A DNA stretch of 64,000 bases from positions 48,829 through 112,828 of IMG/VR virus record IMGVR_UViG_3300025030_000051, one strand, 5' to 3'. The notes beneath the pieces were generated by a model. It saw only the letters and a list, made by a program, of their open reading frames with translations, was not told where the DNA came from and searched no databases. A program made the translations under genes and the position numbers. Positions 1,984 to 46,346 of this stretch are shown here, piece after piece. How positions within the stretch are numbered: position 1 is the first letter of the stretch; every line of letters starts with the position of its first letter. The DNA comes from a virus.

Positions 1984-2790
1984 TTATTTAAACCTTTCAT
2001 CATTTTTTACTAGTTGTGTATATTTATCTTTAATGCGTTGAATTGCGAATTGTTGGTAACCTGGATTTTGTTTGGTTCCTCTATTTATTAAACCATTAAT
2101 TATTTCACTCCCAGCAGAATATTTAGATTGGCGATAGTACCAACAGGGATTTTGTATATATGTTCCCTTATATTCATTAAAAAGTATTCTTGACCAAAAT
2201 TCCATATCTGCAGCGCCTTCATATTCTAAATCAGGTTCTCCTATTAAACTGTGTAATTCTCTTTTATACACGGTTCCACTTGCCAACATGTTATTGTTTG
2301 CTCTTGTAACCTTATTATTAGTTACTCCAAACCATTGTTTAAACTGTTTTAACGATTCTCTATATTCAATATAATATTCTGGATGTATTAATATAGATTG
2401 CAGGGATAAATCTTCTGAAACTTTAAAACCATTTGCTGTAACAAAATATAAATCTTTTTCTTTTTCAAACCAATATTTAACTTGTTCATAAAACATAGAA
2501 GTCATTACATCATCTTGACCAGAAATTTGAACATATTCTCCTTCTAAATATGGAATTACACCGACATATGAACCAGCACACATTTTATTACCATAATTAA
2601 TTTTTGAATAAATATATTTAACATCATTTGAAACTTCTTTAATATCATCTTTTATTATCTCATCACCACAATCATTAAAAATAATGTACGTAAAATCTAT
2701 TCCAGATTTTATTAAAGACATTAAATTTAATTTAATGGTTTCTAAAATAAATTCATTTCTTTTATATACACTTTGTACTATACTTATCAT
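1984..2790 (-). CDS. Glycosyltransferase family 2
   Basis: ISIVQSVYKR, IIFNDC, QDD (DxD-like), ADMEFWSR, YYRQ. Confidence 0.8.
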   Translation of the reverse strand: MISIVQSVYKRNEFILETIKLNLMSLIKSGIDFTYIIFNDCGDEIIKDDIKEVSNDVKYIYSKINYGNKMCAGSYVGVIPYLEGEYVQISGQDDVMTSMFYEQVKYWFEKEKDLYFVTANGFKVSEDLSLQSILIHPEYYIEYRESLKQFKQWFGVTNNKVTRANNNMLASGTVYKRELHSLIGEPDLEYEGAADMEFWSRILFNEYKGTYIQNPCWYYRQSKYSAGSEIINGLINRGTKQNPGYQQFAIQRIKDKYTQLVKNDERFK

Positions 2791-3141
2791 GTATTATTGT
2801 TGTCATAATTCTTTTTTATTAATTCTATGAGCTTTGGATTTCTATACTCAAAATTATCTGGAATATTTAAACAAATTATTTTTTTATTAGTCATTTCAAA
2901 AAGAATATTTTTTTGATTTTTATCCATGCATACAACTTCATCTGCCCATTCTAAAACAACATCGTCTATTGGTATTAAAGCAAACTCTTTAGAAAGTCCA
3001 ACTGATCTTGTATTATAATTGTATGGTTCTTGTGATAATACAAGTGCTGTTGTTGGTGATCTAAGTAAACCGGCAGAACAAACACATAATACTTTTTTAT
3101 ATTTTCCTTGATTTATTATTAATATTTGCCATTCTATTCAT
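2787..3141 (-). pseudogene. Low-molecular-weight protein tyrosine phosphatase-like gene, frameshifted near the 5' end
   Basis: Manual translation: KVLCVCSAGLLRSPT (CX5R), EWADEVVCM, LNIPDNFEY; the ATG-started MNRMANINN is out of frame with the body near 3112. Confidence 0.7.
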
Positions 3142-3152
3142 TTTGAATTCTG

Positions 3153-3471
3153 TCATAATTCTATAACTCTTTTACCAATTTGTGCAAAATTACTTTCTGC
3201 TTTTTTATTATCTTTTTCTTTTAAAAATTCAATTATTTCAATATTTTTTAACTCCTTCAATTCAGCCTTATCAAATTCATGTTGTATTTCATTTAATATT
3301 TTATTAATATAAAGTGATTGTGAATATAAAAGTTCTTCAGTAATAAAAAAAAGTAAAGATTTTATCATTTTTTTTAATATAAAATCTATGAACACCATTA
3401 TCATAGTAACTTTTGACTTTACATTCAAATTTTGTTTCTATTAAATTCTTTAATTCATATAAAATCTGCAT
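3153..3471 (-). pseudogene. Hypothetical gene split by a frameshift in a T8 run
   Basis: ORFs 3337..3588 and 3153..3428 overlap and join at the homopolymer at 3345-3352. Confidence 0.4.
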
Positions 3472-3949
3472 TTTTAATATATTCATCAAAATCTTCTTGA
3501 CTGTAAGTTTCTTTAATATCTTTTTTATATATAATTTTAGCAGGATTACCATAAGCAATTGCATTATTAGGGACATCTTTAGTAACAACTGAACCGGCGC
3601 CTATTATTGCACTATTACCAATGTTTACAGGCAATAAAGTTACTCCACTTCCAATTCTTACATTATTACCAACTTTTGTTTTTCTCAATATCCAATTTTC
3701 TTTATTTTCTTTAAATAAATCATTAGTAAATGCACACAAATGTGAAATAAAACAGTCATCACCAATTTCTACACCCTCACAAATGAAAGTATGAGAACTT
3801 ATTCTTGTTCTGTTTCCTATTTTTACATTTTTCTGAATTTCAACAAAGGGACCTATTAAGCAATTTTCTCCTATTTCACAGTCATATAAATTAACTTGAT
3901 CTAAATTTATTATTTTAGTATTTTTGCCTATTTTACAATTAGTTATCAT
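3455..3949 (-). CDS. Hexapeptide-repeat sugar acetyltransferase (WxcM/WbpD-like)
   Basis: Left-handed beta-helix repeats, FTND, IGAGSVVTKDVP, GNPAK. Confidence 0.9.
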   Translation of the reverse strand: MITNCKIGKNTKIINLDQVNLYDCEIGENCLIGPFVEIQKNVKIGNRTRISSHTFICEGVEIGDDCFISHLCAFTNDLFKENKENWILRKTKVGNNVRIGSGVTLLPVNIGNSAIIGAGSVVTKDVPNNAIAYGNPAKIIYKKDIKETYSQEDFDEYIKNADFI

Positions 3950-3952
3950 TTT

Positions 3953-4396
3953 TTATTTTCTCTTTAGAGTTAAACTTTCTGAATCGTATTCAAATTCTTG
4001 TGACAATGAAATTGTAGATGATTCTTTTTTCTCTATTTTTTCTATTTGTTTTATATTTTCTTTTCTAATCATTTGAAAGTTAGCTTCATAACGTCTTTCG
4101 CTTGCAAAATCGAATGTTGATTTAAGATATCTATATGCATCTCTACTTATTTTTCCTTTTAATGGAATGCAATAGCCTACACAAGTCTGATAGTGTAATT
4201 CACCATCTATGTCTCTTGTCAAATAATACAAATCGTCATCACCAATATTAAATCCCTCTAATATTTCAAGCTTATCATACAGTGTGTAAACAATAGTATT
4301 AAGATATTTCTTAACGAATCTTCTACAAAGCTTAGTGTTTGTTTGACGAAAAACTTTATAGATTAAAAAGTGTCTTACTATATAATATAGTTTCAT
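3953..4396 (-). CDS. Hypothetical protein
   Basis: 147-aa ORF tightly packed in the operon. Confidence 0.5.
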   Translation of the reverse strand: MKLYYIVRHFLIYKVFRQTNTKLCRRFVKKYLNTIVYTLYDKLEILEGFNIGDDDLYYLTRDIDGELHYQTCVGYCIPLKGKISRDAYRYLKSTFDFASERRYEANFQMIRKENIKQIEKIEKKESSTISLSQEFEYDSESLTLKRK

Positions 4397-4641
4397 TTCA
4401 ATATTTTTTTCACTAATTTAACTATTTTAGGATCTTCAAAGTTTTTAATACCATACAATTTTATATTAGATAACTTAAGCTTAATATTAGTTTTATCTTT
4501 TATTTTTTTTGCTAAATCTATAATATTTTTATTATCTTTTTCCTTCCAGTCAGTTGTAATATCAACACAACTAGAAAATATTAAAGATTCTAAAATATAC
4601 TGTAGATCTTCTTCATTTATGTCTATCTTATATGTTTTCAT
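4393..4641 (-). CDS. Hypothetical protein
   Basis: 82-aa ORF with ATGA overlap. Confidence 0.5.
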   Translation of the reverse strand: MKTYKIDINEEDLQYILESLIFSSCVDITTDWKEKDNKNIIDLAKKIKDKTNIKLKLSNIKLYGIKNFEDPKIVKLVKKILK

Positions 4642-32681: not shown

Positions 32682-33251
32682 TCATACATTTAATTTTCTA
32701 CTATATTTATTCCAAATTGTTAAATCATATTCTGCATACGACATATTTTCTTTTTCAGCTAAAGAAATTATAATTTTTTCTAATTCTAAATATTTACTTT
32801 TTGATGGTGTATTTTTTGGTACATCATGACCAAGAAATTTTAAGTGTTGTAATATATGAACATCAAGTCCACTTAATTTTTGATTTTTTCTACTATGTAA
32901 TAAAAAGCACCTTGAAGTTTTTAATCCAATTCCTTTAACTGATTCTAATTCTTTTATTGAACATTTTTTTAAATCTACATTTTTATTTATTAAATCAATA
33001 ATATATTTTGATTTATAATTATAACATCCAATACCCGATTCTTTTAATAAAACTTTTATTTGTTCAAGAGAATATTTTTTTAAAGAATTAAATGGTCCAT
33101 TTTTATAACCATCAATTTTATTTAATAATTTATCTAAAGATTTTGCTGTATTTTTAGCATTCTTACCAGCTACCAAAATCCAAAATATAATTGTTTCTTC
33201 TAATTGAAATTTAGTCTGATTATAATTTGTAATTTCTTGTGGATTAATCAT
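32682..33251 (-). CDS. HhH-GPD DNA glycosylase/AP lyase (8-oxoguanine glycosylase-like)
   Basis: VKGIGLKTSRCFL (HhH Lys), LDVHIL, DLTIW. Confidence 0.8.
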   Translation of the reverse strand: MINPQEITNYNQTKFQLEETIIFWILVAGKNAKNTAKSLDKLLNKIDGYKNGPFNSLKKYSLEQIKVLLKESGIGCYNYKSKYIIDLINKNVDLKKCSIKELESVKGIGLKTSRCFLLHSRKNQKLSGLDVHILQHLKFLGHDVPKNTPSKSKYLELEKIIISLAEKENMSYAEYDLTIWNKYSRKLNV

Positions 33252-33600
33252 TATTTTGGTCTATTATTAATTTTTTAATTATACCACCATGACATTCATT
33301 TTCTGAACTGCAAAAACAAACCAAATTAACTCCATTTTCTCTCTCAGCCCAAACTTTAATTCTATTTAATTCATTCACAATATTAGTATATTTTATTAAA
33401 TTTTGTTTATTCTCTAAAATATCATATAACCATTCTTTGTATTTTGAAATAGCCTCTTCTCTTGTTTTTACTTGAATTAAGACTTTAGTCTTATTTAATT
33501 TTAAATGAGTGTATATATTTCCCAATACTGAACCTCTTCCAATATAAATATCATTTATTTGAGGTACATGTTTATGTTTATTTACTATATTTATTTTCAT
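33244..33600 (-). CDS. DUF4326-like protein
   Basis: YIGRGSVLGN, LVCFC..CHG. Confidence 0.75.
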   Translation of the reverse strand: MKINIVNKHKHVPQINDIYIGRGSVLGNIYTHLKLNKTKVLIQVKTREEAISKYKEWLYDILENKQNLIKYTNIVNELNRIKVWAERENGVNLVCFCSSENECHGGIIKKLIIDQNND

Positions 33601-33679
33601 TCAGTTATTCAAAAATAATCATTTATATATCTAGAAATTCATTATATGATGTCTGTTTAAATAATTAAATATTATATTA

Positions 33680-34702
33680 TTATTTAATAGGACACGCACC
33701 AGTTTCACATTCTAAGTCATCCTTTAATTCTGATAAATCAACAGTTTTTTTATAAAGTTTATTAAAATCAATTTTGCTAATTAATTCTTCATATTTTTCT
33801 TTTGTAATTTCTTCATAAGGTGCTTGTTTAAATCCGTGTTCACTGTGAAGTAAAAAAGAAACTGATTTTATTGAATTTTTATAATTTTCTTTTAACCACA
33901 GTTGTATATTAGTTAGTTCTTCTTTTTTATAATAAACAGTACAACTAACAGCATTATCAGACCAAATTGTCTGCATTTTTTTTAATAATTCTAACTGTTT
34001 AATGGCATCAAAATCTTTTGTTAAAATTGCATTTTTATTAGATTTCATTGGAAATTCTACAATAACAGTATTTCTATCTAAACTTCCATCTAATTGAGTC
34101 ACATATTCAGTATTAAGTCCAGCATCTTTACATAAATTTACCAAACTATCGTTTGACGACATTCTTATTCTTCTAATATAATACTCAGAATATGCTGAGT
34201 GTAATCCTGGTGTGGTATTAGGAAGAAGACTTAAAGTACCAGAAGGCTTCAAACATGTTAATCTTATTGATTCATTCCAATTATTTTCTTTTGAATATTT
34301 TTTATCAAATTCTTCTATATAATCTGATATTTCATTAAGCCAATTAAGTTGCTCTTCAGTAGATTCACATATTCCAGTTATACCTATTCCAAGACGATTA
34401 TTTTTATGAACTATTTTATTTGTTTCTTCATGTAAATAATTCATGTTTGCAACATTTTTAGAAAATTTATATAATAAAATAACTATTTCTTTTAATTCTT
34501 CTTTTAATTTAATTCGAGGGAGAAATATTTCTGTTAAATTGCAACATTCTTTATTGGCAAGAAAAATTTCAACACAATTATGCACAAGTATATTATTAGC
34601 AAAAAAATTATGATTATTTTCAACACTAATATCATAAACATCTTCATTGGAAATAATTTCTATTTTTTTTATTTTAGTTTTAACAATCGTTCTTTTTTCC
34701 AT
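33680..34702 (-). CDS. nrdJ: Class II (B12) ribonucleotide reductase, C-terminal fragment preceded by a 42-aa IntC
   Basis: VYDISVENNHNFFANNILVHN|CVEI; CNLTE, KPSGT, CETGACPIK. Confidence 0.9.
   Translation of the reverse strand: MEKRTIVKTKIKKIEIISNEDVYDISVENNHNFFANNILVHNCVEIFLANKECCNLTEIFLPRIKLKEELKEIVILLYKFSKNVANMNYLHEETNKIVHKNNRLGIGITGICESTEEQLNWLNEISDYIEEFDKKYSKENNWNESIRLTCLKPSGTLSLLPNTTPGLHSAYSEYYIRRIRMSSNDSLVNLCKDAGLNTEYVTQLDGSLDRNTVIVEFPMKSNKNAILTKDFDAIKQLELLKKMQTIWSDNAVSCTVYYKKEELTNIQLWLKENYKNSIKSVSFLLHSEHGFKQAPYEEITKEKYEELISKIDFNKLYKKTVDLSELKDDLECETGACPIK
34577..34702 (-). mobile_element. Split intein C-fragment (NrdJ), 42 aa
   Basis: Block F VYDISV, block G HN followed by Cys+1. 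Confidence 0.9.
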
Positions 34703-34711
34703 TTTTTTAAT

Positions 34712-35086
34712 TCACTTCCATAAGTTGTATTTTCTTCTAAATAATTGTTTATATTTTCTATTAATATAACATTTATATTTTTTAATTTTTCTTTTAATAA
34801 AATTGTTTTCCAAATCATAATATTCTTTTAAAGATTTTTCAAAAATATTAAATTTAAACTTATTTTCTTCAATTAAACATTTAAGTATATAATCATTTTT
34901 ATATTTTAATCTCCTTTTACTTCCAAGTTTATTTTTATTAAAATATTTTATAAAATTTTCATTATTTTCTAAATCATCATATATTTTTGGCAATAAATTA
35001 TTTTTAATATTATTCATACCAATAACAGGTTTATAAAAAATATTATAGAGGGATATAATATTTTTTTGCAATTCTAATATATTCAA
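34712..35086 (-). CDS. Basic orphan protein inserted between the NrdJ intein halves
   Basis: 124 aa, GGAG RBS and TTG start; no nuclease motif recognised. Confidence 0.55.
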   Translation of the reverse strand: MNILELQKNIISLYNIFYKPVIGMNNIKNNLLPKIYDDLENNENFIKYFNKNKLGSKRRLKYKNDYILKCLIEENKFKFNIFEKSLKEYYDLENNFIKRKIKKYKCYINRKYKQLFRRKYNLWK

Positions 35087-35148
35087 AGTATTCTCCAGAT
35101 TAAAAACTAATACGGATTTATACCTATAAAATATTAGAAATTAAATTT

Positions 35149-36471
35149 TTAATTATTTTTTATTTGTATAATAATATCATTTTCACTCAAATTATTAGCC
35201 GCTATCCAGCCTCTGTTTTCTGTATAAACTTTATGATTTGGTGTTAGTTTTAATTCTGTATTATCTTCTAATATTAATTTTATAATATTTACATCTTTTC
35301 TTGTCAACTCAATCTGTCTTATATTATTATATTCTAATTTTTTATTATTTTCATTAAAAGTTAATATTTTGGGTTTATTTTTACATTTAATTAATTTATT
35401 TATTTTAATGTCACCAATTTCAGTAGTTATAAAAGTATCACCGGTTACGCAAGGATTTGCCCCATCAATTGAATTATCACGCTTTTTTCTTCCAAGCTTA
35501 CCAACTGCTCTTGCTAATTTTAAATTTACTAAACCATAAGGTTCACCATTACCATTATAACTATTCCAAAACTCTGGCATTAATTCGTCGTAATCATCTG
35601 CTGCAATACTATTATTTGACATTGCTCTCCAAGATGGTACATTTTCCATATCCCATCTTTTAGCTCTAAGATATAAAATATCATCTGGATCACCTATGGC
35701 CAACTCAGCGCTTCTCCTGACATTTCCACTTACAACTATCTGTCCAATAATATTAAAAACATCTAACACATCAATACTTCTTAATCTTTTGCCTTCTCTA
35801 TTTTTCAATATCGAACAAATATTTTGAATTCCAATATGTAATTCTTCAGGACCTGAAGAAACTCCACCAAAACCTTTTATTAATGCTCCTTTGCTTCTAA
35901 TTAAATCCAATGAATATGAAAATGATTTTCCGTTATTCATAAAAGCTTCTAAAACTTTTTTTAATAATTCAACCCAGCCCTCTCTTTTATCTGGAACTAT
36001 AAAGTCTGCATCTTTAGTATCTTCTCTATATATATTAATATTTTCTTTTATTTTTGGCAATTGATAAACATCTTCTTTTCTTACAGAAACTCCAACACCA
36101 CCTCCAAGCATTAATTCTTCCATACCAAAACAAAAATCTTCTATAGTTGATAATTTTGTAAACCAACAGTTTAATAAACTATCTCCCATGAATTTATCTA
36201 CTATTTTAGTTCCAAGTTGCCATAAAGCTCTACCAGATAAGCAACATTTTAAATTAAATATATAATCATATAATTTTACTAATTCATCGTCTGAAATTTT
36301 AAAATTATATTTTTTAATTGCACTTACGCATCTTTGAATTGTTTCATGCCATTCTTCAGTTATATCTTCATTTTCTTTTAATCTTGCATAAGTTCTTTTA
36401 TAAACTATATAACCAAGAATAGATCCTGGCCAGTTTTTATTTTCATATTTTTTATATAGATTATCTATCAA
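35149..36471 (-). CDS. nrdJ: Class II ribonucleotide reductase, N-terminal fragment ending in a 100-aa IntN
   Basis: GRALWQLG, LLNC, GGGVG, VRRSA, GANP|CVTGDT..TPNH. Confidence 0.9.
   Translation of the reverse strand: MIDNLYKKYENKNWPGSILGYIVYKRTYARLKENEDITEEWHETIQRCVSAIKKYNFKISDDELVKLYDYIFNLKCCLSGRALWQLGTKIVDKFMGDSLLNCWFTKLSTIEDFCFGMEELMLGGGVGVSVRKEDVYQLPKIKENINIYREDTKDADFIVPDKREGWVELLKKVLEAFMNNGKSFSYSLDLIRSKGALIKGFGGVSSGPEELHIGIQNICSILKNREGKRLRSIDVLDVFNIIGQIVVSGNVRRSAELAIGDPDDILYLRAKRWDMENVPSWRAMSNNSIAADDYDELMPEFWNSYNGNGEPYGLVNLKLARAVGKLGRKKRDNSIDGANPCVTGDTFITTEIGDIKINKLIKCKNKPKILTFNENNKKLEYNNIRQIELTRKDVNIIKLILEDNTELKLTPNHKVYTENRGWIAANNLSENDIIIQIKNN
35152..35451 (-). mobile_element. Split intein N-fragment (NrdJ), 100 aa
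   Basis: Block A CVTGDT, block B LTPNHKVY. Confidence 0.9.
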
Positions 36472-36720
36472 ATATTTTTTTCAATTAATAAATCAATAAG
36501 ATTGATTTTTGTGTGAGACACAAGTTTAAAATTTATTTTATTTTATTTCTTGATTTTTAAAATTAAGAAATTAGTTTAAACTAAATCAAAGCCAGTACAG
36601 ACAGTTTTTATAAACTGTTAAACAATATTAAATGTTAAAGGATAGAATTTCCCATTCAATACTTTTAATCAAGCCTTGATATATCTATTTATGTTCTCTT
36701 TTGAACTAACTAATACTTGA

Positions 36721-37167
36721 TTAAATATTTAGTGTAATATTAAAATTATTTAAAAATTGATATTCTCTATTTTTAATACTATATATATAATTATTTATTT
36801 CTTTAATTACTTTATTAATATTATTTTCTATTTCTTCATTAGTAAATCTTATTAAAAAATTTTTATAATATTGTTTTAGTTTTATTTCTCTTAAAGTATC
36901 TTTAATTTTTTGTTTATCATTTTCATGATATTTTCCATCAACTTCTATAAATAAATAATTTTTATATTTATCATTTTTTATAGGAATTGAAAAATCAGGT
37001 ATATAAAACTTATTTTTATAAGATCCTCTAGGGATAGCTCTTTGAAAGTAAAAAAATATATTTTCTTTTTCTAACTTACTTTTTAACAACATTTCAGCAT
37101 TTGTTGCATTTTTTTTTAATTTTTTAGAAAATTGTAAAGCTCTTTTTTTATTATTATTAAATTTCAT
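36721..37167 (-). CDS. Vsr/DUF559-like endonuclease
   Basis: TNAE, FQ, PDF, EVDGKYH, D..R, IRFTN. Confidence 0.85.
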   Translation of the reverse strand: MKFNNNKKRALQFSKKLKKNATNAEMLLKSKLEKENIFFYFQRAIPRGSYKNKFYIPDFSIPIKNDKYKNYLFIEVDGKYHENDKQKIKDTLREIKLKQYYKNFLIRFTNEEIENNINKVIKEINNYIYSIKNREYQFLNNFNITLNI

Positions 37168-37670
37168 TTAAATTTTTTATTTCTTTTAATTTGATTATTT
37201 AAGTGAAACTGTTCGTTTTCTAATTTATGTATTTTCCCTTTAGAAGGTCTACCAAATTTTTTTGATCTTTTTTTGGTTAATTTATATCTTTTAAAACTAT
37301 CATATCCTTTATAATTTTCTGTTTTTTCTTTTGAATCTATTAACAATCTTTTATAATTATTTAAACAATTATTTATCGTTTCTATAAAGTATTTTTGTTT
37401 ACTAAATATATCATTATTTGTAAATCTTAATATATTTTTTATTTTATTACTATATTCAATCATTAATGTTTCTTCTCTTAATTTATCTTTTTCTTTTTGT
37501 TCATTATGATATTCTCCATCTATTTCAATAACAGTCTTAATTTTAGGTATATAAAAATCTACTCTATATAGAATAAATATTTTTTGGAAAATAAATTTTA
37601 TTTTATTATCTTCTAATAATTTTTTTGCTATTAATTCAGCTTTAGTTGGATTTTTAATAGCCTCATTTTT
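37164..37670 (-). pseudogene. Second Vsr/DUF559-like endonuclease, 5' end frameshifted
   Basis: Frame upstream of the track ATG reads NPTKAE..FQK..VDFY..EIDGEYH..LRFTN; no in-frame start, break in the A-run near 37666. Confidence 0.7.
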
Positions 37671-37726
37671 CTATAAAATGATAATTTATTTATATTTTTC
37701 TTTTATTAATAAATATTATTTAAAAT

Positions 37727-38887
37727 TCAATTTTTATCTTTAAAATATTTTTCTTTTAATAATTTTTTTGTTAAGCTATTTCCATTCATTTTTTCATTCA
37801 GAATTTTACCTTGTAAACTATTACTTTCAAAAATTGATAACTTTCCGTTATTTACGTTAAACTGTGCTGGAAATCTAATTTTATCTACTCCGAATCTATT
37901 CTTAATAATAAAAATTCTTGCTGTTTTTGATTCACTGTCTATTTCTTTTCTTGATACTGAAAAAATAAAATCACCAATCATTATTTTAGAATAATCTTCA
38001 GATATTTGTTCTCCAACTATTACATCAGATTCAGCACCTGAACGATTAACTTGAGAAACTGTCCAAACTCCAGTATTAAAATCACCAGACATTCCTCTTA
38101 ATTCTTCATAAATATTTCCTATTTCTAATCTTTTATCTTTATAAAATCTTGGTGCCTTTAATAAATCACCATAATCAACTATAATTAAATCTGGTTTTAA
38201 TCCAAGTTGAATAGATCTTTCAATATGTGATGTTAAAGTATTTATTGTTGCTCTTTTTGGAGGATATTCTTTTACTAATAGTTTTCCTTTTTTTTCATTT
38301 AAATTATTTAGAGATTTTTCTATTTCAATTTCATTAAACTTTAATTCAGAAACATAAATATCTGTAAATCTAGAATAGTATCTTTTAGTTATCATTTCTT
38401 TACTTAATTCTAAAGTATAATGAAATACTATTTTTCCTTGTTTTAAAGCTTCAGTTCCTATATTGGCAAGTTGCCATGAATTATGAGATAGTATTTCATT
38501 ACTATAATAACAATTAACGTCATCTACTTCTAAATCAAATAATATTTGTTTTTTATGAATTATATATTGTTTTTTTAATGTAGTTATACCATTTTTAGTT
38601 TCAATAATATCATTATTATTTATATTTTTTACATATTTCCACTCATTATTTGCCATTATTCTATGTTTGGTTGATGTCTTTAGTGTTTTTCCATTACTAA
38701 AATAATTAATGACAACAAATTTATTTTTTATTGTGAATAATTTATTTATTTTTTTATATCCAAAGGGTGTTAAAACATTAATTTTAAATGGTAATATATA
38801 ATTTATTTCTTCATTGTAATTTAAATTACAATTTTTAAATAAATCTACAATCTTAACAGTTTCAGTTTTTTTTCTAAAATATATCAT
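37727..38887 (-). CDS. dnaB: Replicative helicase C-terminal fragment preceded by a 136-aa IntC
   Basis: TSTKH (block B), LFDLEV..SHN|SWQL; TLEL, IIVDY, SQVNR, KNRFG. Confidence 0.9.
   Translation of the reverse strand: MIYFRKKTETVKIVDLFKNCNLNYNEEINYILPFKINVLTPFGYKKINKLFTIKNKFVVINYFSNGKTLKTSTKHRIMANNEWKYVKNINNNDIIETKNGITTLKKQYIIHKKQILFDLEVDDVNCYYSNEILSHNSWQLANIGTEALKQGKIVFHYTLELSKEMITKRYYSRFTDIYVSELKFNEIEIEKSLNNLNEKKGKLLVKEYPPKRATINTLTSHIERSIQLGLKPDLIIVDYGDLLKAPRFYKDKRLEIGNIYEELRGMSGDFNTGVWTVSQVNRSGAESDVIVGEQISEDYSKIMIGDFIFSVSRKEIDSESKTARIFIIKNRFGVDKIRFPAQFNVNNGKLSIFESNSLQGKILNEKMNGNSLTKKLLKEKYFKDKN
38480..38887 (-). mobile_element. Atypical split intein C-fragment (DnaB), 136 aa
   Basis: Blocks B, F and G all in this fragment; HN then Ser+1. 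Confidence 0.85.
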
Positions 38888-39849
38888 TTTAAAAATTTCT
38901 TTATTTTTTTTATTATTTCACTTTTATTGTTATACCAATCATCTTCCCAAACAATCATTATTTTATAATTATTATTTTCTAATTTTTTTATTCTTTTTTT
39001 ATCATGTTCCCATATATCTTTTATTTTTTGTTTTGTCATCTTGTGTTTTTCTTCTCCATTTAAAAAATATTTAGGATTACAATGCCAAAAATCTCCAAAA
39101 AATTCTATTATCTTATTTTTATAAAGTATATCTACAGAATAAGCTCTTTCTTTATAAATTTTTATATCAACATTTGCCTTTGCTTTTATATTGAAATTTT
39201 CACATATATAATTATATAATTCAGCTTCACCCTTGCTTCTTGATACAATAAAATGTTTTGCCCATTTAGTAGCTCCAATATCTAATATTGTTTTACTAAG
39301 TGTAGAACTTATTTTTAATTTTGATATATCTGAATGGTTGTGATTTAAAAATTTAGATGATTTTTTACTATTTTTTGATTGAAGTTCACAAATAATGTTT
39401 TTTGCTTCTTTTTCAGAATAACCCTTTTTAAGCCAGTGTAGTATACTAAGTATACTTTTTTCTTTTTGAATAATTTCAATTTGTTTATTTGCTTCTTTTT
39501 CAGAATAACCCTTTTTAAGCCAATATTCTATATACCAGTTGCTATTTTGTTTTTGTGTTAAACTAACCATATTAGTGGCTTCTTTTTCAGAATAACCCTT
39601 TTTAAGCCAATATTGTGGTTTTCTATTTGTAATAACTTTTGTTTTAAACCACTTTTTAAATTCAGGATCTTTATACTTATCTCTTATTTTTTGTTTTGTT
39701 TCTTCTGTTAATTTTACTATTATTAATTTTAATTCTTTACCGTATTTTTCTTTATATTCATTTCCCCTCATGTTGTGTTTAAATTTTAAATGTGGGACTA
39801 AATTTTTCATTTTTCTATTACATATTTTACAAATTAATAGTTTTTCTAT
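38884..39849 (-). CDS. Free-standing Vsr-like homing endonuclease inside the fractured dnaB
   Basis: SKGE, VD, EFFGDFWH, VWEDDW; NUMOD3-like motifs; upstream in-frame C2H2 finger CKIC..H..H implies a start at ATA 39849. Confidence 0.8.
   Translation of the reverse strand: MEKLLICKICNRKMKNLVPHLKFKHNMRGNEYKEKYGKELKLIIVKLTEETKQKIRDKYKDPEFKKWFKTKVITNRKPQYWLKKGYSEKEATNMVSLTQKQNSNWYIEYWLKKGYSEKEANKQIEIIQKEKSILSILHWLKKGYSEKEAKNIICELQSKNSKKSSKFLNHNHSDISKLKISSTLSKTILDIGATKWAKHFIVSRSKGEAELYNYICENFNIKAKANVDIKIYKERAYSVDILYKNKIIEFFGDFWHCNPKYFLNGEEKHKMTKQKIKDIWEHDKKRIKKLENNNYKIMIVWEDDWYNNKSEIIKKIKKFLK
39404..39609 (-). repeat. Three identical 32-nt coding repeats (WLKKGYSEKEA), 87-nt period
   Basis: gcttctttttcagaataaccctttttaagcca at 39404, 39491 and 39578. 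Confidence 0.9.
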
Positions 39850-39895
39850 TTGTTTTCTCCATTTTTTATTAAAAATATAAAGAAAACAAATTTTT

Positions 39896-40672
39896 TTAAT
39901 GTTTTTCCTGTACCGGGTGTTTCAATTCATAAGCAAACATTGTTTTTTCATCAATTTTTACTATTTCCCATGGTTTATACCATTTTATTTCATTATCAAT
40001 TTCTATTCCTATTTCATTATATTGTATATCTATTTTTGTGTTTTTACCAACACATTTTCCCATTCCGGGTGACCCAGCAATTATAAATAATTCACCGGTT
40101 TTCGAATCCCCAATACCACCTTCTGTTATTTCATTAATAATATCCCACGGAGTTGCTATAGTATTTCTTTTAGCTTTTTCAAGCATTTCATTTGGAGATT
40201 TTTCTAACAACATTAATCCTATATCTCTATCTTGACCTGCTCTTTCGGCCTCCCTAAATCTTATTTTAACAGCTTCATAATCTCCTTTTTTAATATCGTC
40301 AACAGAATTATAAACAGTTAATTTCCAGTTTTGATTAATACAAAATTCAATAAAGTTATCTTTAATATAAGATAAATCTTCAGCAGTTTTAAAGTCGTAC
40401 GATTCTCTTAATTTTTGTACAATGCTTTCTTTAAAGACATCATTCTTTTCACTTTCAATTTCTGCCTTGAATACTTCTAACGTAGGATTTAATTTGTATT
40501 TTTTGTAATATTCTTTGATTTTATTCACAATCCACTGACAAGCTTCAGAATCAAAAAATTCTGGTTTTAATATGTCTTCAGTTTTAATTAAAAATTTCAA
40601 ATCATATATAAGGCAGGTAACAACCTTAGATTGATAAACTTGTCCGAAGCGTGTTAAGTTATCTAATTGCAT
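39896..40672 (-). CDS. dnaB: Replicative helicase N-terminal fragment ending in a 52-aa IntN
   Basis: TPWDIINEITEGG, GEL, GSPGMGK|CVGKNT (Walker A split after Lys). Confidence 0.9.
   Translation of the reverse strand: MQLDNLTRFGQVYQSKVVTCLIYDLKFLIKTEDILKPEFFDSEACQWIVNKIKEYYKKYKLNPTLEVFKAEIESEKNDVFKESIVQKLRESYDFKTAEDLSYIKDNFIEFCINQNWKLTVYNSVDDIKKGDYEAVKIRFREAERAGQDRDIGLMLLEKSPNEMLEKAKRNTIATPWDIINEITEGGIGDSKTGELFIIAGSPGMGKCVGKNTKIDIQYNEIGIEIDNEIKWYKPWEIVKIDEKTMFAYELKHPVQEKH
39899..40054 (-). mobile_element. Atypical split intein N-fragment (DnaB), 52 aa
   Basis: Block A CVGKNTKI; no block B before the TAA. Confidence 0.85.
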
Positions 40673-41115
40673 GATTTGACAAAAAGTTTTGACTTTTCAA
40701 GTAATGAGAATTTTCTTGAAGGCTGTTTTTTATCTACAATCTTACAACCAAATGGATATTGCGGAAAACAAATAGAATTAAATCTATTTTTTCCTTTAAA
40801 TCTTGGAAACCCTGGTATCTGATGTTGTTTGATTCTTCTAAAGAAATTTTTATAGGCATTATCAACAGTTTTAAGTACATATTGTAAATTTTGAGCAAAT
40901 ATTTCTTTATATTCAGGATAAAATTCTTTAAACTCTGTAAGTTCTTTAGATTGATCATAATAATTAATAGATTTACTGTTTATAGATGATTTATATGAAT
41001 TTATTCTTTGTTCAAGACAAACGTTATAGAGATTTCTACAAAGTTCAAATTGATTGTTTAAAGTTTTTTGAATTGTTTTATTTGGGTAGATTCTATATTT
41101 GAAAGATTTTCTCAT
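40663..41115 (-). mobile_element. tnpB: IS200/IS605 TnpB remnant lacking the RuvC domain
   Basis: KYRIYPN, CRNLYN, AYKNFFRR, GFPRFK; ends at 150 aa. Confidence 0.8.
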
Positions 41116-41164
41116 TGCTTAATTATAAAATTTTGAATTTTAATAAACTTTCTATTCGAAAAAT

Positions 41165-42223
41165 TTAACTCTCTTTTGCAAATTTATTTAAAATAGAAAA
41201 ATTTGTTGTAATCCATTCATTAATATTCTTAAAAGAATTCCAAATTTTATCGTGTTTGATCAGTTCATAAATATGTATAAGATTTATTTCTGTAATTTTT
41301 TTATTAAATAGTTCAGTAATCTTTAATACGGAAGACTTAGGAATATTGTCATTAGAAAGCTTCATAAGCTTATAATTCAAAATATATTGGTTTATATTGT
41401 CTGATAGTAATCTGAATGCTCTGGCGTCATCTGTGTGATCGTGGGAGTAATCTAGAACGTTATCTACGGTGTATTGTTTGTCTTCATTTAAGAAACTAAA
41501 ATGCTTGTTTATATTCTTAATTCCTAATCCCTTTATTCCCGGTACATTATCACTTTTGTCACCAACCATAGATTTATATAAGGCAAAGTTATTTGGACTA
41601 ACGTTAAATCTTGTTAATACATTTTCTTTTGTGACAACTTCTTTTTTAATAGGATTCCAAACTTTTACTCTATCATCAATTAGCTGATAAAAATCTTTAT
41701 CTGAAGAGATGATAAATAATTCCTGTAGTTCTTTTTTATTTTTACATATATCTATTAAACAGCTTATTGAATCATCAGCTTCAATGCTATCTATACATAT
41801 AAAAGTTATAGGAAGATTTTTTAAATATTGAACAATACGCAATAATTGATATTGCATTTGTTTTCTTTCTTCTTCTTCATTTTCCCACTTATAAGCTCTG
41901 TTTAATCTTGTACCAGATCCACGGTTTTCTTTATAATCAGGAAATATTTTTTTTCTTCTTTTAGAAGAGTCTTTACCATCTAAAACAATAAAAATACGAG
42001 TGGGTCGTAATGCTCTAATAGAAACCCCCAAAGTATGAAGAAAACCGACTATTCCACCAACATGGCGTCCATCTTCATTTGTTGTAGGCATTACAACCCA
42101 AATTCGTATGAAATTATTTAAACAGTCAACAATTAAAATTCTAGAATTTAAAGTTAAATCTTTTTCTTCTTTATGTTCTTTTTCTATTATTTTAAGAAGT
42201 TCTTCAAATTTTTCATTCATCAA
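41165..42223 (-). CDS. 5'-3' exonuclease / T4 RNase H-like flap nuclease
   Basis: VDCLN, DG..R..YKENR, EADD, SSDKDF, GDKSDNVPGIKGLG. Confidence 0.92.
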   Translation of the reverse strand: MMNEKFEELLKIIEKEHKEEKDLTLNSRILIVDCLNNFIRIWVVMPTTNEDGRHVGGIVGFLHTLGVSIRALRPTRIFIVLDGKDSSKRRKKIFPDYKENRGSGTRLNRAYKWENEEEERKQMQYQLLRIVQYLKNLPITFICIDSIEADDSISCLIDICKNKKELQELFIISSDKDFYQLIDDRVKVWNPIKKEVVTKENVLTRFNVSPNNFALYKSMVGDKSDNVPGIKGLGIKNINKHFSFLNEDKQYTVDNVLDYSHDHTDDARAFRLLSDNINQYILNYKLMKLSNDNIPKSSVLKITELFNKKITEINLIHIYELIKHDKIWNSFKNINEWITTNFSILNKFAKES

Positions 42224-43527
42224 TCTTCTACTGTTTCGTCAATTTCTATTTTAGATTTATCTATATTTTCAGAATTTCTGTCTACGTATTTCATAATGAT
42301 TTTATCTGCAAGATTATCATACAACAGCTGTTTCTTTTGTGGATTATTAATTATTAATTCTTCGAAATTTGGGTTTTGAAATCTTGTCATTTCTAAATCG
42401 TTTTCTATCATATACCACCCTTTTACTTCTTTAAATTTATTATCTTTATTTTCTGACTTAGTTTCATCTTCTAATTTTTTGGCTTTAATAATAGAACCAT
42501 ATTTTTTTCCTGTTTCAAACCAAGTTGTAGAATTATCTAACCCTCTATCAAAATAAACATCATAATCACAAGATCTAAAAGATGGACCTAATTTACTTTT
42601 TATAACTTTACAGTTACCTCTAATACCAATTATATCAGTGCCACTTTTTAGTTTGCTTATATTTTTTAATCTCAATCTTAATGATGCATGAAATTGTATT
42701 GCCTTTCCGCCTGATGTTGTATACGGATCTCCAAATGTTACTCCAATATTTGATCTTAATTGATTTGTAAAAATTAAAGCTATTTTATGATTAGCTATTA
42801 CTTTACCAATTTTCCTCATAGCTTGTGATAATATTGTTGCCTTTTGAGTAGCAAACCCTTGTTTATCATATGTTCCCTCATCTTCAACTTTATTTGTTGC
42901 ACCCATAATAGAGTCAAGAGCAATGGTAACTAATCTATCACTGTTTGCTTTTCTAACACTCTCAATAATGTTTTCTATAGTCTGGAATGCGTCTTCTATA
43001 ACTGGTATTGGAGCATAAATCATTTTACCTAAATCTAATCCTATTGCTTTCATAAATTCTCTATCAGCAGAATGTTCAGTATCTATTAATACAGGAACTC
43101 CATTCTTTTTTTGAGTTTCTAATAATATATGATGAACTAATAAAGACTTGGCTGTGTTATGATTCAACATTCCATTTCCAAAATAACATTGATCATCATA
43201 ATTTTTTTCATCTATTACTATATCTACAATTTTATATTTTCCAATATAATTTACTGCTTTTACTAAATGATAATTATCGTCATCACATAATATTTTAGTT
43301 TCATTTGGTATCAATTCGAGTGTTTTTACCCACCCAGAATTAGTAAAAAATTGATGTTTTTTTGCTACATTTTGTTTATAGTTATTTTTTAATATAACTT
43401 GCCAAGTATCTAATAATCCTTTTTCAATGTATTTTTTTATATATACGTATTCTCCATTTTTTGATTTAACTTTTATTTTTTTATTTTCTTCAAGTAATTT
43501 TTTTATTTCTTTAATTTCTACTTGCAT
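42220..43527 (-). CDS. recA: RecA/UvsX C-terminal fragment preceded by a 124-aa IntC
   Basis: IVDIVI..YFGNGMLNHN|TAKS; IDTE, LDS, NQLR, TSGGKA, KSK. Confidence 0.9.
   Translation of the reverse strand: MQVEIKEIKKLLEENKKIKVKSKNGEYVYIKKYIEKGLLDTWQVILKNNYKQNVAKKHQFFTNSGWVKTLELIPNETKILCDDDNYHLVKAVNYIGKYKIVDIVIDEKNYDDQCYFGNGMLNHNTAKSLLVHHILLETQKKNGVPVLIDTEHSADREFMKAIGLDLGKMIYAPIPVIEDAFQTIENIIESVRKANSDRLVTIALDSIMGATNKVEDEGTYDKQGFATQKATILSQAMRKIGKVIANHKIALIFTNQLRSNIGVTFGDPYTTSGGKAIQFHASLRLRLKNISKLKSGTDIIGIRGNCKVIKSKLGPSFRSCDYDVYFDRGLDNSTTWFETGKKYGSIIKAKKLEDETKSENKDNKFKEVKGWYMIENDLEMTRFQNPNFEELIINNPQKKQLLYDNLADKIIMKYVDRNSENIDKSKIEIDETVED
43156..43527 (-). mobile_element. Atypical split intein C-fragment (RecA), 124 aa
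   Basis: VAKKHQF (block B His), IVDIVI (F), HN then Thr+1. Confidence 0.85.
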
Positions 43528-44732
43528 AATTTTAATAATCTTTCTTTCTGTTTTGAATTTAATATAATTAAATTATTTTTTATTAAATTTAGAATTTTAT
43601 TTTTATTTAAAATATTTTTTATATCATAAGTTTCTTCTGTTATATAATTACATTTTAAATTAAATTTGTTACAATATTCTTTTAATGCATAAAATTTAAG
43701 TTTATTTAAAGATAAATTGATTAATACTTTGGGTTTGATTTCATATATATTGTTTTCTATAATAATGTCTGGATTATATGTTTTTTTTGTGTTTTTATAT
43801 TTAAAGCTTATTCTATGTTTAGATAATGAAAAATTTATATTATTTTCTATTAGATAAATAAAAATTGATAATTCTAAAGAACTTCTAAATAAAATTTTTT
43901 TACCATTATTAATTAAATGACCAAATATTCCTCTACCTGATAAATATGATGGAGATCTTCCATACATTGAAGTTCTTTTTGTTTTTCCATATAATTTTTT
44001 AAGATGTATATAGTTATGAAATTGATTTATATTTTTTAATTTTAATTTAATGTCTTTAGCAAAATCATTATTCTTTAATCCATCTATATATATCCCTTTA
44101 GCATCATTACTTAATTCTGGTAAAGCATTTTTTCTATCTAAAGCATTTTGATGTAATCTTTGTGCATTTTTTTTAAATTGATTTTTAGCTTTTATAGCAT
44201 TTAATATTTTACCATTATTTTTTGCATTTTCAAAAAAATTATAAAATTTTAAATAATTAGTTATAGGAATTGGACCAATTTTTGTTATTTTGCATATATC
44301 AGTTATAGACTTTCCGTTTTTTATTTCTTCTCTAATCAGTTCTCCAAAATTTTTATTAATATTGTTGAATCTTTTTATTCTTTTTAATTTTTGATATTTT
44401 TTTAATTTTATAGATTTATTTCTTTTGTTTGTACCATTTAATTTGTTCTCTAATTTAAGTTTTGTTTCATCTTTGGATATTTTAAATCTTTTTTTTAGTG
44501 TTTTTTCATATATATTATAAAAATTATATTCTTTGACTGTTTGTAAAATTATTCTTTCATTTTTTATATTAAAAATTTTTGCTATTTCAAATCTATTTTT
44601 TCCTTCTATCAGTAAGTTTTTAATTTTATTCCAATTATCAAATTTAAATTTACAAATATGATAATGCGAATTATAATTATTTTTACTAATTATTTTATTA
44701 CACAATTCACATTTTATATAATTTACTATCAA
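43518..44732 (-). CDS. Free-standing TnsA-like PD-(D/E)xK endonuclease inside the fractured recA
   Basis: N-terminal CELC..H..C finger, HTH-like segments, FRSSLE, YNPDI, YEIKP; GGAG RBS. Confidence 0.75.
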   Translation of the reverse strand: MIVNYIKCELCNKIISKNNYNSHYHICKFKFDNWNKIKNLLIEGKNRFEIAKIFNIKNERIILQTVKEYNFYNIYEKTLKKRFKISKDETKLKLENKLNGTNKRNKSIKLKKYQKLKRIKRFNNINKNFGELIREEIKNGKSITDICKITKIGPIPITNYLKFYNFFENAKNNGKILNAIKAKNQFKKNAQRLHQNALDRKNALPELSNDAKGIYIDGLKNNDFAKDIKLKLKNINQFHNYIHLKKLYGKTKRTSMYGRSPSYLSGRGIFGHLINNGKKILFRSSLELSIFIYLIENNINFSLSKHRISFKYKNTKKTYNPDIIIENNIYEIKPKVLINLSLNKLKFYALKEYCNKFNLKCNYITEETYDIKNILNKNKILNLIKNNLIILNSKQKERLLKLCK

Positions 44733-44788
44733 AAAATTTCTCCATATACTTATTTTTATTATTATATAAATATATGGATTTTGAAATT

Positions 44789-45061
44789 TTATTCAATTAT
44801 TATATCAATAATTGTATCTTCAGAAACACAACTTTCTAGTCCGTTTATTTCTGTAATTCTTCCAACAGGAATTCCACCGTTTCTTCTATTTGATATTACC
44901 ATATCCATGATTGGGTCTCCAATCGAGACCCAATCTGTAATGTCTGATGGATTCCATTCTGGATTATCAAGAAAATATGCACTAAAAGGACTTTCAGAAG
45001 AATTTATAACATTATATACTGAAGAAATTAATTCATCATGAATTTCACTTTTTTTCTTCAT
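44789..45061 (-). CDS. recA: RecA/UvsX N-terminal fragment ending in a 13-aa IntN
   Basis: WVSIG..D..GGIPVGRITEINGLES|CVSEDTIIDIIIE-stop. Confidence 0.9.
   Translation of the reverse strand: MKKKSEIHDELISSVYNVINSSESPFSAYFLDNPEWNPSDITDWVSIGDPIMDMVISNRRNGGIPVGRITEINGLESCVSEDTIIDIIIE
44792..44830 (-). mobile_element. Ultra-short split intein N-fragment (RecA), 13 aa
   Basis: CVSEDTIIDIIIE is block A only, followed by TAA. Confidence 0.85.
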
Positions 45062-45063
45062 TT

Positions 45064-45840
45064 TTATTTCTTAGGAAATAATTTATCAAAAGCTGCAGAT
45101 GCTTTATCGACATCTTCATTTTTTACTTCTTCTTCATCATTACTATTATTTGAAATTTCTTTTTCTTCCTTACTATTTTTGTTCTTTAACCAATTTTCTA
45201 GAATATCTTTCAGTTCGTCATATTCCAATTCTTTATAGATATCATTGATATTTTTTTGTTCATCAAGATATTTTTTAATTAATTCTTCAGAGTCTGAAAG
45301 TGGACTGGTATTTCTTTTTGTTCTAATTGAAGTTTTACCAAAATTGTTTCCTGCCTCTTCTGGAGTTTGATAAGTTATTACTAAATCAGTTCCATTATTT
45401 ATATCAGAAATATCACCGTAATCTGGATCTGACATAATTTTTAGAATTTCTTCATAAGTAGTTTTACCAAATTGCCAAAATCTTATTCCCTCATCTTCCT
45501 CACTTCTTACTAAAACTGGAACAAATATTCTCATTTTGGCTCTTAATGTTCTGCTTAGTGCATAATCATTTTTATCTCCAGTTGCAGCTAGTTTATCAGC
45601 AAACTTTTCAAAGGGGTCTGGATTTCCAAAGGACTTTGGGGAAATATAATTTTTATTGTCTATACCATAGTGGAAAAATAATTCTATAAAAGGATACTCG
45701 GCGTGTTTATATGGAACTATTCTTACTGTGTGTTCTCCTGTAGGCTTCCACATCCCAGAAGTTCTCTGAGATGAATCTTGTAACCCTTTGAGTGTTTTTC
45801 GAACTTTATCTAAAAGTTCTTTGTGAGATCTTGTCTTCAT
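45064..45840 (-). CDS. Single-stranded DNA-binding protein (gp32-like)
   Basis: WKP..VRIVP, PF..HY, WQFGK, GTDL, acidic tail ending FDKLF. Confidence 0.8.
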   Translation of the reverse strand: MKTRSHKELLDKVRKTLKGLQDSSQRTSGMWKPTGEHTVRIVPYKHAEYPFIELFFHYGIDNKNYISPKSFGNPDPFEKFADKLAATGDKNDYALSRTLRAKMRIFVPVLVRSEEDEGIRFWQFGKTTYEEILKIMSDPDYGDISDINNGTDLVITYQTPEEAGNNFGKTSIRTKRNTSPLSDSEELIKKYLDEQKNINDIYKELEYDELKDILENWLKNKNSKEEKEISNNSNDEEEVKNEDVDKASAAFDKLFPKK

Positions 45841-45944
45841 TTTTTATTACTCCCATTATTTAATGTTTAATAATTTATTAGTTATCAGTTAATATTTTAA
45901 TGCATAACCAAATAACCAATTTTTAATAAATATAAAAAAAAATT

Positions 45945-46346
45945 CTACAATTCAACTATTTTAAGTAATTTAGTATTAATTTTTTTGAATTCATTGTTGT
46001 CTATAACTAATATTGAATTTGAATAATTATTCCAGTCAACTAAAAATTTTTTATCTAATATTCCATCGTTAAGTAGAGTAATAAGATGATTCAAAGCATT
46101 TATAGTATAGAGAGTATTGGAAATCTTTTTCCTGTGAACTGAAATTGTATTTATAGGAATAGTTTCAACTTTGATTTCTTTTGAGCTGTCTATATTATAG
46201 CTACAGATTAGTTTATTATTCTCATTAACACTCTGTAAAATAAATATTTTATCAAATAGAATTGTATAAGAACTTTTAATAGATTCAACTATTTTATCTA
46301 AATTCTTACTGTCTGTAAATGTTATTAGTAATTGAGAAGTAAACAT
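45945..46346 (-). CDS. Conserved hypothetical phage protein
   Basis: HRKK.SNTLYTINALN motif; replication context. Confidence 0.55.
   Translation of the reverse strand: MFTSQLLITFTDSKNLDKIVESIKSSYTILFDKIFILQSVNENNKLICSYNIDSSKEIKVETIPINTISVHRKKISNTLYTINALNHLITLLNDGILDKKFLVDWNNYSNSILVIDNNEFKKINTKLLKIVEL

Follow-up and report, generated by a model that had tools for sequence, protein, structure and literature searches.

Three fractured replication genes with probable split inteins in a single phage genome

Results

Three replication genes are interrupted in the same way

The stretch of viral DNA analyzed here (the window; 64,000 nucleotides (nt), positions 48,829 to 112,828 of IMG/VR virus record IMGVR_UViG_3300025030_000051) is the second half of a linear 112,828-bp record with a CheckV completeness of 63% and a G+C content of ~24%. 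Between window positions 33,680 and 45,061, the genes recA (uvsX), dnaB and nrdJ each read, in order, as an N-terminal extein continued by an N-terminal intein fragment (IntN), a stop codon, a separate open reading frame (ORF), and a C-terminal intein fragment (IntC) continued by the remaining extein (Table 1); according to the ORF list, all genes of this region lie on the minus strand. The initial annotation had proposed this layout, with IntN/IntC lengths of 13/124, 52/136 and 100/42 amino acids (aa) and with Thr, Ser and Cys as +1 nucleophiles at the junctions GLES↓TAKS, GMGK↓SWQL and GANP↓CVEI (the arrow marks the insertion point), and all of these particulars are borne out. Its placement of the insertions at active sites also holds: in RecA and DnaB they fall in the Walker A loop, and in a ribonucleotide reductase (RNR) at the thiyl-radical cysteine. 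By family matches, the exteins are RecA (PF00154), the C-terminal helicase domain DnaB_C, and an RTPR-type class II RNR (TIGR02505, ~1e-53 per half). Within each gene, the pieces are in different reading frames, with the sole exception of the nrdJ 124-aa ORF and the nrdJ IntC, which share a frame and are separated by a TGA and three codons.

Table 1. Gene pieces, intein fragments, intervening ORFs and RNA hairpins at the three loci (window positions)
Feature	Position	Strand	Description
recA N-half (extein + IntN)	44789-45061	-	GLES, 13-aa IntN, then TAA
recA/uvsX N-extein, 77 aa	44831..45061	-	ends GRITEINGLES, first half of Walker A
recA IntN, 13 aa (CVSEDTIIDIIIE)	44792..44830	-	then TAA 44789-44791
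RNA hairpin at recA gap ORF	44734..44790	-	pairs the GGAG ribosome site; -15.6 kcal/mol, z -5.1
recA gap ORF	43518-44732	-	404 aa, free-standing, TTG start
recA C-half	42220-43527	-	124-aa IntC with NHN end, then TAKS
recA IntC, 124 aa	43156..43527	-	ends GNGMLNHN; ATG overlaps stop of putative nuclease ORF (ATGCAAGTAG)
recA C-extein, 311 aa	42223..43155	-	starts TAKS (Thr+1); PF00154 3.4e-41
dnaB N-half	39896-40672	-	GMGK, then 52-aa IntN
dnaB/gp41-type helicase N-extein, 206 aa	40055..40672	-	ends GSPGMGK (Walker A)
dnaB IntN, 52 aa	39899..40054	-	CVGKNTKIDIQ hairpin and conserved insert containing KWYKPWE
RNA hairpin at dnaB gap ORF	39848..39891	-	over the GGAG site; -17 kcal/mol, z -4.1
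dnaB gap ORF	38884-39810	-	308 aa, free-standing
dnaB C-half	37727-38887	-	136-aa IntC with SHN end, then SWQL
dnaB IntC, 136 aa	38480..38887	-	ends NEILSHN; ATG overlaps stop of putative nuclease ORF (ATGA)
dnaB C-extein, 250 aa	37730..38479	-	starts SWQL (Ser+1); DnaB_C 4e-12
nrdJ N-half	35149-36471	-	GANP, then 100-aa IntN
nrdJ N-extein, 340 aa	35452..36471	-	ends DGANP (RTPR-type class II RNR); TIGR02505 1.2e-52, RNR_Alpha 6e-17
nrdJ IntN, 100 aa	35152..35451	-	starts CVTGDT, block B TPNH; TIGR01445
nrdJ gap ORF	34712-35086	-	124 aa
nrdJ C-half	33680-34702	-	42-aa IntC with VHN end, then CVEI
nrdJ IntC, 42 aa	34577..34702	-	ends NHNFFANNILVHN; TIGR01443
nrdJ C-extein, 298 aa	33683..34576	-	starts CVEI; TIGR02505 2.2e-54

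Intein motifs and family relationships

The three loci are very probably fractured genes with naturally split class 1 inteins, the nrdJ intein being related to NrdJ-1 and the recA intein, a member of a large metagenomic family, to VidaL; we base this reading on the intein motifs, on relatives with empty sites and with contiguous inteins, and on the lack of any intron-like RNA. In all three inteins, Cys1 directly follows the N-extein (GLES↓C, GMGK↓C and GANP↓C), a block B histidine is present (AKKH in recA, STKH in dnaB, TPNH in nrdJ), and the C-terminal residues precede the expected nucleophile (NHN↓T, SHN↓S and VHN↓C, respectively). The block B histidine, the terminal HN and the +1 residue are kept in the intein family alignments.

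The nrdJ intein scores above the curated cut-offs of both intein families (TIGR01445, 35.7 bits with a cut-off of 24.5; TIGR01443, 32.8 bits with a cut-off of 15.6), and its IntN matches the NrdJ-1 intein of PDB 8ubs at 1.5e-9. A recA-type IntC profile built from 23 sequences matches PDB inteins, including Spl DnaX (5e-14), gp41-1 (2.6e-13) and VidaL (6vgv, 7e-8). The dnaB IntC has a weak match to the atypical CatC intein 6dsl (0.004). The initial annotation had called for an intein search with profile hidden Markov models (HMMs), and the HMM of the recA-type family matches exactly these three inteins across the 112.8-kb record, with scores of 3.5e-46 for recA, 1.2e-13 for the dnaB IntC, and 1e-6 and 4e-5 for the nrdJ halves. 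Similarity among the three inteins is at the level of motifs only; the first strands of the recA and dnaB IntN are identical at 6/13 residues.

The recA intein is split after a 13-residue IntN

The recA N-extein aligns with the N-terminus of uninterrupted RecA from related loci L006 and L008 (65% identity) and from Microcystis phage Mel-JY01. A protein from ENA (P0002), 81% identical to the recA N-half, ends in the same 13-aa piece followed by a stop. This piece aligns to beta1-beta2 of contiguous relatives, and ten recA inteins in one piece, 133-152 aa long, can be aligned over their whole length with the 13+124 aa found here, the break falling in a variable loop. Searching with the recA IntC returned 58 relatives, 34 of them below 1e-10. 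When viral contigs were scanned with the recA C-half as a single sequence there were no matches; the alignment-based scan gave 39 loci. At the 35 IMG/VR loci with a readable junction, the IntN is 13 aa long in 23 and 14 aa long in 5, and the intein is contiguous in the other 7. At the related split loci, 22 nt to 1366 nt separate the IntN stop from the IntC start, and 21/28 of these loci hold an ORF homologous to the 404-aa ORF (25-57% identity; mostly full-length, several truncated), with none in the remaining seven.

In an AlphaFold model of a contiguous relative, P0017 (mean predicted local distance difference test (pLDDT) 84, predicted template modeling score (pTM) 0.72), the intein forms a separate domain within the RecA fold, and our split maps to the turn at residues 88-89, right after beta2 (84-87). 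Foldseek returned only RecA structures for the P0017 model, which confirms the extein fold and not the HINT fold. According to the model, the recA split is at the 'S1' position, which is also that of VidaL and PolB16 (PMC13014065).

Empty recA sites in relatives read GLES↓SGKS. The C-extein here begins with the codons ACA GCC AAG TCT (43144-43155, minus strand), a Gly-to-Ala change in Walker A. The ATPase of a RecA with TAKS could be impaired, or TAKS could be a tolerated variant.

The dnaB intein combines a Walker A site with an enlarged IntN

In four other phages, the dnaB N-half likewise stops 47-59 aa past Cys1, and a W..PW(E/D) motif is shared. Relatives of the IntC (P0065-P0067) are 48-55% identical to it, and one of them, P0066, is a one-piece dnaB intein in which the 52-aa piece, including the extra segment, is in-frame and continuous. 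P0066 came from the IntC search; a word search from the dnaB IntN tail found no longer one-piece proteins. In a model of P0066, the beta1-beta2 hairpin is followed by extra strands and a helix, then by the loop that holds the dnaB split, and then by the usual strand and helix. Because of this strand order, the model indicates that the 52-aa IntN is an S1-type split that has retained an insert of ~40 residues. Empty dnaB sites in uninterrupted relatives read GxGK↓(T/S)W, and the exact dnaB C-half protein is recorded from 21 contigs, the longest of 217 kb.

Other inteins and arrangements occur at dnaB. A second split intein lies further along the gene, at SQxxR↓C, in P0065, P0066, L008, L088, L092-L094, L111, L114 and L125, and its IntC resembles the nrdJ-type IntC. 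At L116 and L117, the recA and dnaB Walker A inteins are both one-piece, making these loci useful controls for the split forms.

The nrdJ intein is a shifted relative of NrdJ-1

The nrdJ intein is split at the canonical position, and its IntC is 57-88% identical to the IntC of many phage split inteins. The +1 cysteine is the thiyl-radical cysteine of the NPCxEI motif (site definition from PMC2677866). In relatives without an insertion, the site is NP↓C(G/C/S/A/L)E; L010 and L011 are among the relatives that have an uninterrupted nrdJ. One-piece inteins of the same family are found at NP↓C in L095 and at the adjacent point in L023 and L033. The NrdJ-1 insertion point, NPC↓S, does not apply to this gene: here, and in L017 and L032, the site is NP↓C, whereas the NrdJ-1-type point (NPC↓C in relatives) is used by L020-L024, L028 and L033-L037. 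The nrdJ intein therefore lies one residue upstream of the NrdJ-1 point and is a homologous intein but a different allele; a one-residue shift of the element seems to have taken place.

At L017 (1881-5490), nrdJ is in three pieces. Its first split intein, at NP↓C, has a gene for a 255-aa PD-(D/E)xK-like nuclease in the gap, and the halves of its second (KPSG↓C...SHN↓T) are separated by ~30 nt with no gene between them.

Intervening ORFs, hairpins and translational coupling

The initial annotation had compared the layout with known fractured genes that have intervening endonucleases. The gap ORFs of recA and dnaB are putative nuclease ORFs, and that of nrdJ is not a recognizable endonuclease. 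The 404-aa ORF in the recA gap combines an N-terminal CxxC/H motif, a helix-turn-helix (HTH_7, 9e-5) and a PD-(D/E)xK-like C-terminal domain (weak Phage_endo_I match, 6.5e-4), and is a putative homing endonuclease. The 308-aa ORF in the dnaB gap is Vsr-like (Vsr TIGR00632 at 2.5e-4, MTES_1575 at 2.6e-5, and a PHROG endonuclease family), and homologues with ~34-40% identity occupy the same gap of fractured dnaB elsewhere, for example in L022, L037, L093, L101, L111 and L114. The Lys-rich 124-aa ORF in the nrdJ gap matches no Pfam or PHROG family and has no significant similarity to ten nucleases from related nrdJ gaps or to the two in the window's own gaps; its identification as a decayed nuclease was rejected for lack of similarity to the related gap nucleases.

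Upstream of its annotated ATG, the dnaB gap ORF remains open (39811-39852, minus strand), and this part encodes a CxxC motif resembling the zinc fingers with which homologues of the ORF begin. Behind the GGAG, an ATA or ATT within the hairpin is the only candidate for a start codon. Because of these two features, translation probably begins further upstream, near 39849, at a non-AUG codon.

The spacers following the IntN stops measure 56 nt at recA and at most 85 nt at dnaB. Each is predicted to fold into an RNA hairpin over the ribosome site of the following ORF (Table 1), and none of 200 shuffles was as stable (0/200 for each hairpin); folding of the nrdJ spacer is not significant (z -1.3). 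Since the hairpins cover the ribosome sites and the ORF stops overlap the IntC starts, translation of the recA and dnaB C-halves is probably coupled to that of the gap ORFs.

Related loci carry every stage of the proposed route of intein splitting

Neither recA nor dnaB is interrupted in L006-L008, the nearest relatives in IMG/VR (55-66% identity), or in Microcystis phage Mel-JY01, and the joined exteins of this phage reproduce the motifs of the empty-site relatives. Taken together, the relatives show all stages: an empty site, a contiguous intein, and a split intein with a full, truncated or absent nuclease gene. The gene-breaking model of Dassa et al. (PMC2677866) predicts this allele series.

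The initial annotation had presented the three inteins as a natural set; the relatives show that such a set is not special. Among 116 related IMG/VR loci, six have three split inteins of these types and 14 have two (20/116 with two or three), and recA, dnaB and nrdJ are all split in L098 and L125. Judged by these sequences, the dense arrangement is not unique: the architecture has been known since 2009 and is common in related phages. Other genes are also affected; at L059, on a contig that also carries a fractured dnaB, a split intein divides a dUTPase gene (2516-4465), and a 311-aa nuclease ORF lies in the gap.

Genetic code, RNA and assembly

An alternative genetic code or stop-codon read-through was considered and rejected: the standard code gives long ORFs over ~98 kb of the 112.8 kb, and TGA ends 42/131. 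In the nrdJ gap, a Pfam match that continues over the TGA is only apparent and spans a low-complexity, Lys-rich stretch. The initial annotation had named RNA-level removal of the inserts as an outcome that would refute it. No intron family was found by an Rfam scan of positions 33000-46000 at E<=1, in which the sole match was a chance match to a small RNA. A promoter and terminator scan gave nothing above the shuffled background in this AT-rich DNA, and we found no near-identical phage in GenBank. An assembly artefact is unlikely because of the standard code, the motifs, the family matches, the recording of the dnaB C-half from 21 contigs, and the independent P0002.

Neighboring genes

The neighboring genes form a T4-like replication module, with gp32 at 45064-45840 and a 5'-3' exonuclease gene at 41165-42223. 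A 150-aa ORF (40663-41115, minus strand) corresponds to the N-terminal third of an IS605-type TnpB/OrfB (phrog_506, 2.8e-23; HTH_OrfB_IS605, 2.5e-11). This truncated remnant overlaps the start of dnaB by 10 nt and is not present in the same interval of relatives L006-L008. Between dnaB and nrdJ, outside any intein, there is a free-standing gene for a DUF559/Vsr-fold endonuclease (2e-11; 36721-37167, minus strand), the fourth nuclease-type gene within 11 kb, and beside it a 99-aa ORF (37164-37463, minus strand).

Discussion

A proposed route from intact genes to six precursors

We propose that, in an ancestor, recA, dnaB and nrdJ each had a one-piece mini-intein at a conserved catalytic loop, and that a free-standing homing-endonuclease gene then inserted into the coding sequence of each intein, dividing it into IntN and IntC. 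The phage would now make six polypeptides. Each cognate IntN/IntC pair would come together as a folded HINT domain and ligate its exteins through the class 1 pathway, in which a thioester at Cys1 is attacked by the +1 Thr, Ser or Cys and the terminal Asn cyclizes. The predicted products are RecA with a Walker A of GLESTAKS, DnaB with GSPGMGKS, and a class II RNR with NPCVEI. The layout, the motifs, the homology and the series of empty, contiguous and split alleles are observed in the sequences, from which we infer splicing activity, efficiency and partner specificity.

Several observations weigh against fractured genes with functional split inteins at all three loci. As single sequences, the recA and dnaB intein pieces score below the Pfam curated cut-off. 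Confidence in the P0066 model is only moderate, with a pLDDT of 64 for the whole and of 54-81 within the intein. There is no recognizable nuclease in the nrdJ gap, and the spliced RecA would read TAKS, versus (S/T)GKS in all 38 related loci and in the protein relatives.

The last two observations would also be expected if at least one locus were decaying, with the halves still made and either an intein that does not splice or an inactive product, so that the phage relies on the host's RecA, DnaB or RNR, or on another gene. The orphan Lys-rich ORF at nrdJ suggests decay of a mobile element, and the TnpB-like fragment beside dnaB shows that debris accumulates in the region. Set against this, the catalytic intein residues are intact in all three inteins, the exteins are full length, 55-66% identical to relatives and free of frameshifts, the same split state is kept across diverged phages, and the exact dnaB C-half recurs on many contigs; we regard decay as unlikely. 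The halves might instead assemble non-covalently into active enzymes, with the intein pieces as dimerization handles only. There is a precedent in the mobE-split NrdA of phage Aeh1, a split RNR that is assembled without splicing (PMC3045599). Here, the breaks lie in Walker A loops and just ahead of the radical Cys; an unligated chain with 13-136 additional residues at such places would disturb catalysis, and the retention of Cys1, the block B His, HN and the +1 nucleophile in split alleles would go unexplained without splicing chemistry; non-covalent assembly is thus very unlikely. That the inserts are removed as group I or II introns, or that the stops are read through to give one-piece proteins, finds some encouragement in the common frame of the nrdJ 124-aa ORF and IntC across a single TGA. 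The recA and dnaB pieces are in different frames, TGA is a normal stop in this phage, the scanned region has no intron family, and intein motifs stand exactly at the junctions, making one-piece expression of this kind extremely improbable.

The initial annotation had also suggested that splicing could act as a post-translational switch for recombination, unwinding and dNTP supply. Such a switch might be regulated by redox state, by temperature or by timing through the hairpin-gated nuclease ORFs. The two putative nuclease ORFs do have ribosome sites masked by hairpins and stops that overlap IntC starts, so that the amount of C-half could follow nuclease translation, and inteins cluster in replication proteins (PMC4760082). 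However, we found no sequence feature specific to conditional splicing, close relatives live without any of the three inserts, and the stages of endonuclease gain and loss in relatives fit a selfish element rather than a selected regulator. A regulated switch is therefore distinctly unlikely. Because relatives show every stage of that gain and loss, a selfish-element history, in which a homing endonuclease invaded a mini-intein, is the simpler reading. A bolder proposal is that the trio is a co-evolved toolkit, comprising a Thr+1 IntN of 13 residues (shorter than any characterized natural IntN), a structurally new IntN of ~50 residues that includes a small subdomain of its own, and an NrdJ-1-like intein, all mutually orthogonal, with hairpin-gated nuclease ORFs that set when, during infection, the C-halves are supplied and recombinase and helicase thereby reconstituted. 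We consider this proposal unlikely as a whole.

The initial annotation had argued that the six precursors should not cross-react, and mutual orthogonality is plausible since the three inteins are alike at the motif level only; in addition, split recA, dnaB and nrdJ occur together in several related phages. In published matrices, cross-reaction is found mainly among atypically split inteins whose partner is a short peptide (PMC7090010). The similar first strands of the two short IntN resemble that situation, so cross-reaction between the recA and dnaB inteins is conceivable.

Relation to characterized systems

Fractured genes were described from Global Ocean Sampling (GOS) metagenomes by Dassa, London, Stoddard, Schueler-Furman & Pietrokovski (2009, PMC2677866), in gp41-1 to -9, NrdJ-1/2, NrdA-1 to -7, IMPDH, DnaE, ligase and terminase. 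The loci described here share with them the same-strand order of extein-IntN, short spacer, free-standing gene (a putative endonuclease gene at recA and dnaB) and IntC-extein, as well as the Vsr-like endonuclease family, hairpins over the endonuclease start and phage DNA-metabolism hosts, and the gp41-7 locus is without a nuclease, like the nrdJ gap here. There are also differences. The eight fractured host types of that study do not include recA/uvsX, which is fractured here; the dnaB site is the Walker A loop, whereas the gp41 sites lie elsewhere; and the putative recA nuclease is PD-(D/E)xK-like, neither GIY-YIG nor Vsr-like. Three fractured genes stand on one contig, an arrangement that the short reads of that study could not show. 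In the openly accessible literature, we found no description of a fractured recA/uvsX or of this split intein at the dnaB Walker A.

The NrdJ-1 intein (PDB 8ubs; Carvajal-Vallejos et al. 2012, cited in PMC7090010) is homologous to the nrdJ intein, with the same canonical split of ~100-105 / 40-42 aa, the same host enzyme and the same catalytic loop. It differs in its insertion at NPC↓S, whereas the radical Cys itself serves as the +1 residue at NP↓C here, and the IntN identity is modest. The recA intein resembles VidaL (PDB 6vgv/6vgw; Burton et al. 2020, cited in PMC13014065; IntN of 16 aa) and PolB16, whose 15-aa IntN has been called the shortest characterized (PMC10189870): all are split directly after beta2, which leaves the IntN very short and the IntC long. 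The profile of recA-type IntC sequences matches VidaL end to end, the sequence relation being distant, and the 13-aa recA IntN is shorter than that of PolB16, in a RecA host with Thr or Ser at +1. The dnaB intein can be likened to the P-loop (site b) DnaB inteins (Novikova et al. 2016, PMC4760082) by its general location in the P-loop; unlike them, it is naturally split and has a ~50-aa IntN with an extra subdomain. Finally, the mobE-split NrdA of Aeh1 is likewise a phage RNR gene broken by a free-standing homing endonuclease gene under hairpin control (PMC3045599). Its product is assembled non-covalently and without an intein, whereas complete intein halves are present here.

Implications

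These loci do not represent a new kind of system; NrdJ-1 and VidaL are characterized relatives. Their value lies mainly in protein engineering. Natural IntN peptides of 13-14 residues, with Ser or Thr as the +1 residue, are available from the recA family, the dnaB family has an uncharacterized split geometry, and phages with several such inteins are a sensible place to seek naturally orthogonal pairs. Together with its relatives, this phage displays the proposed route from a mini-intein to a fractured gene and on to an endonuclease-free split intein. If the predicted inteins splice, it would provide a well-supported case in which a single phage relies on three separate protein trans-splicing reactions for its core replication enzymes.

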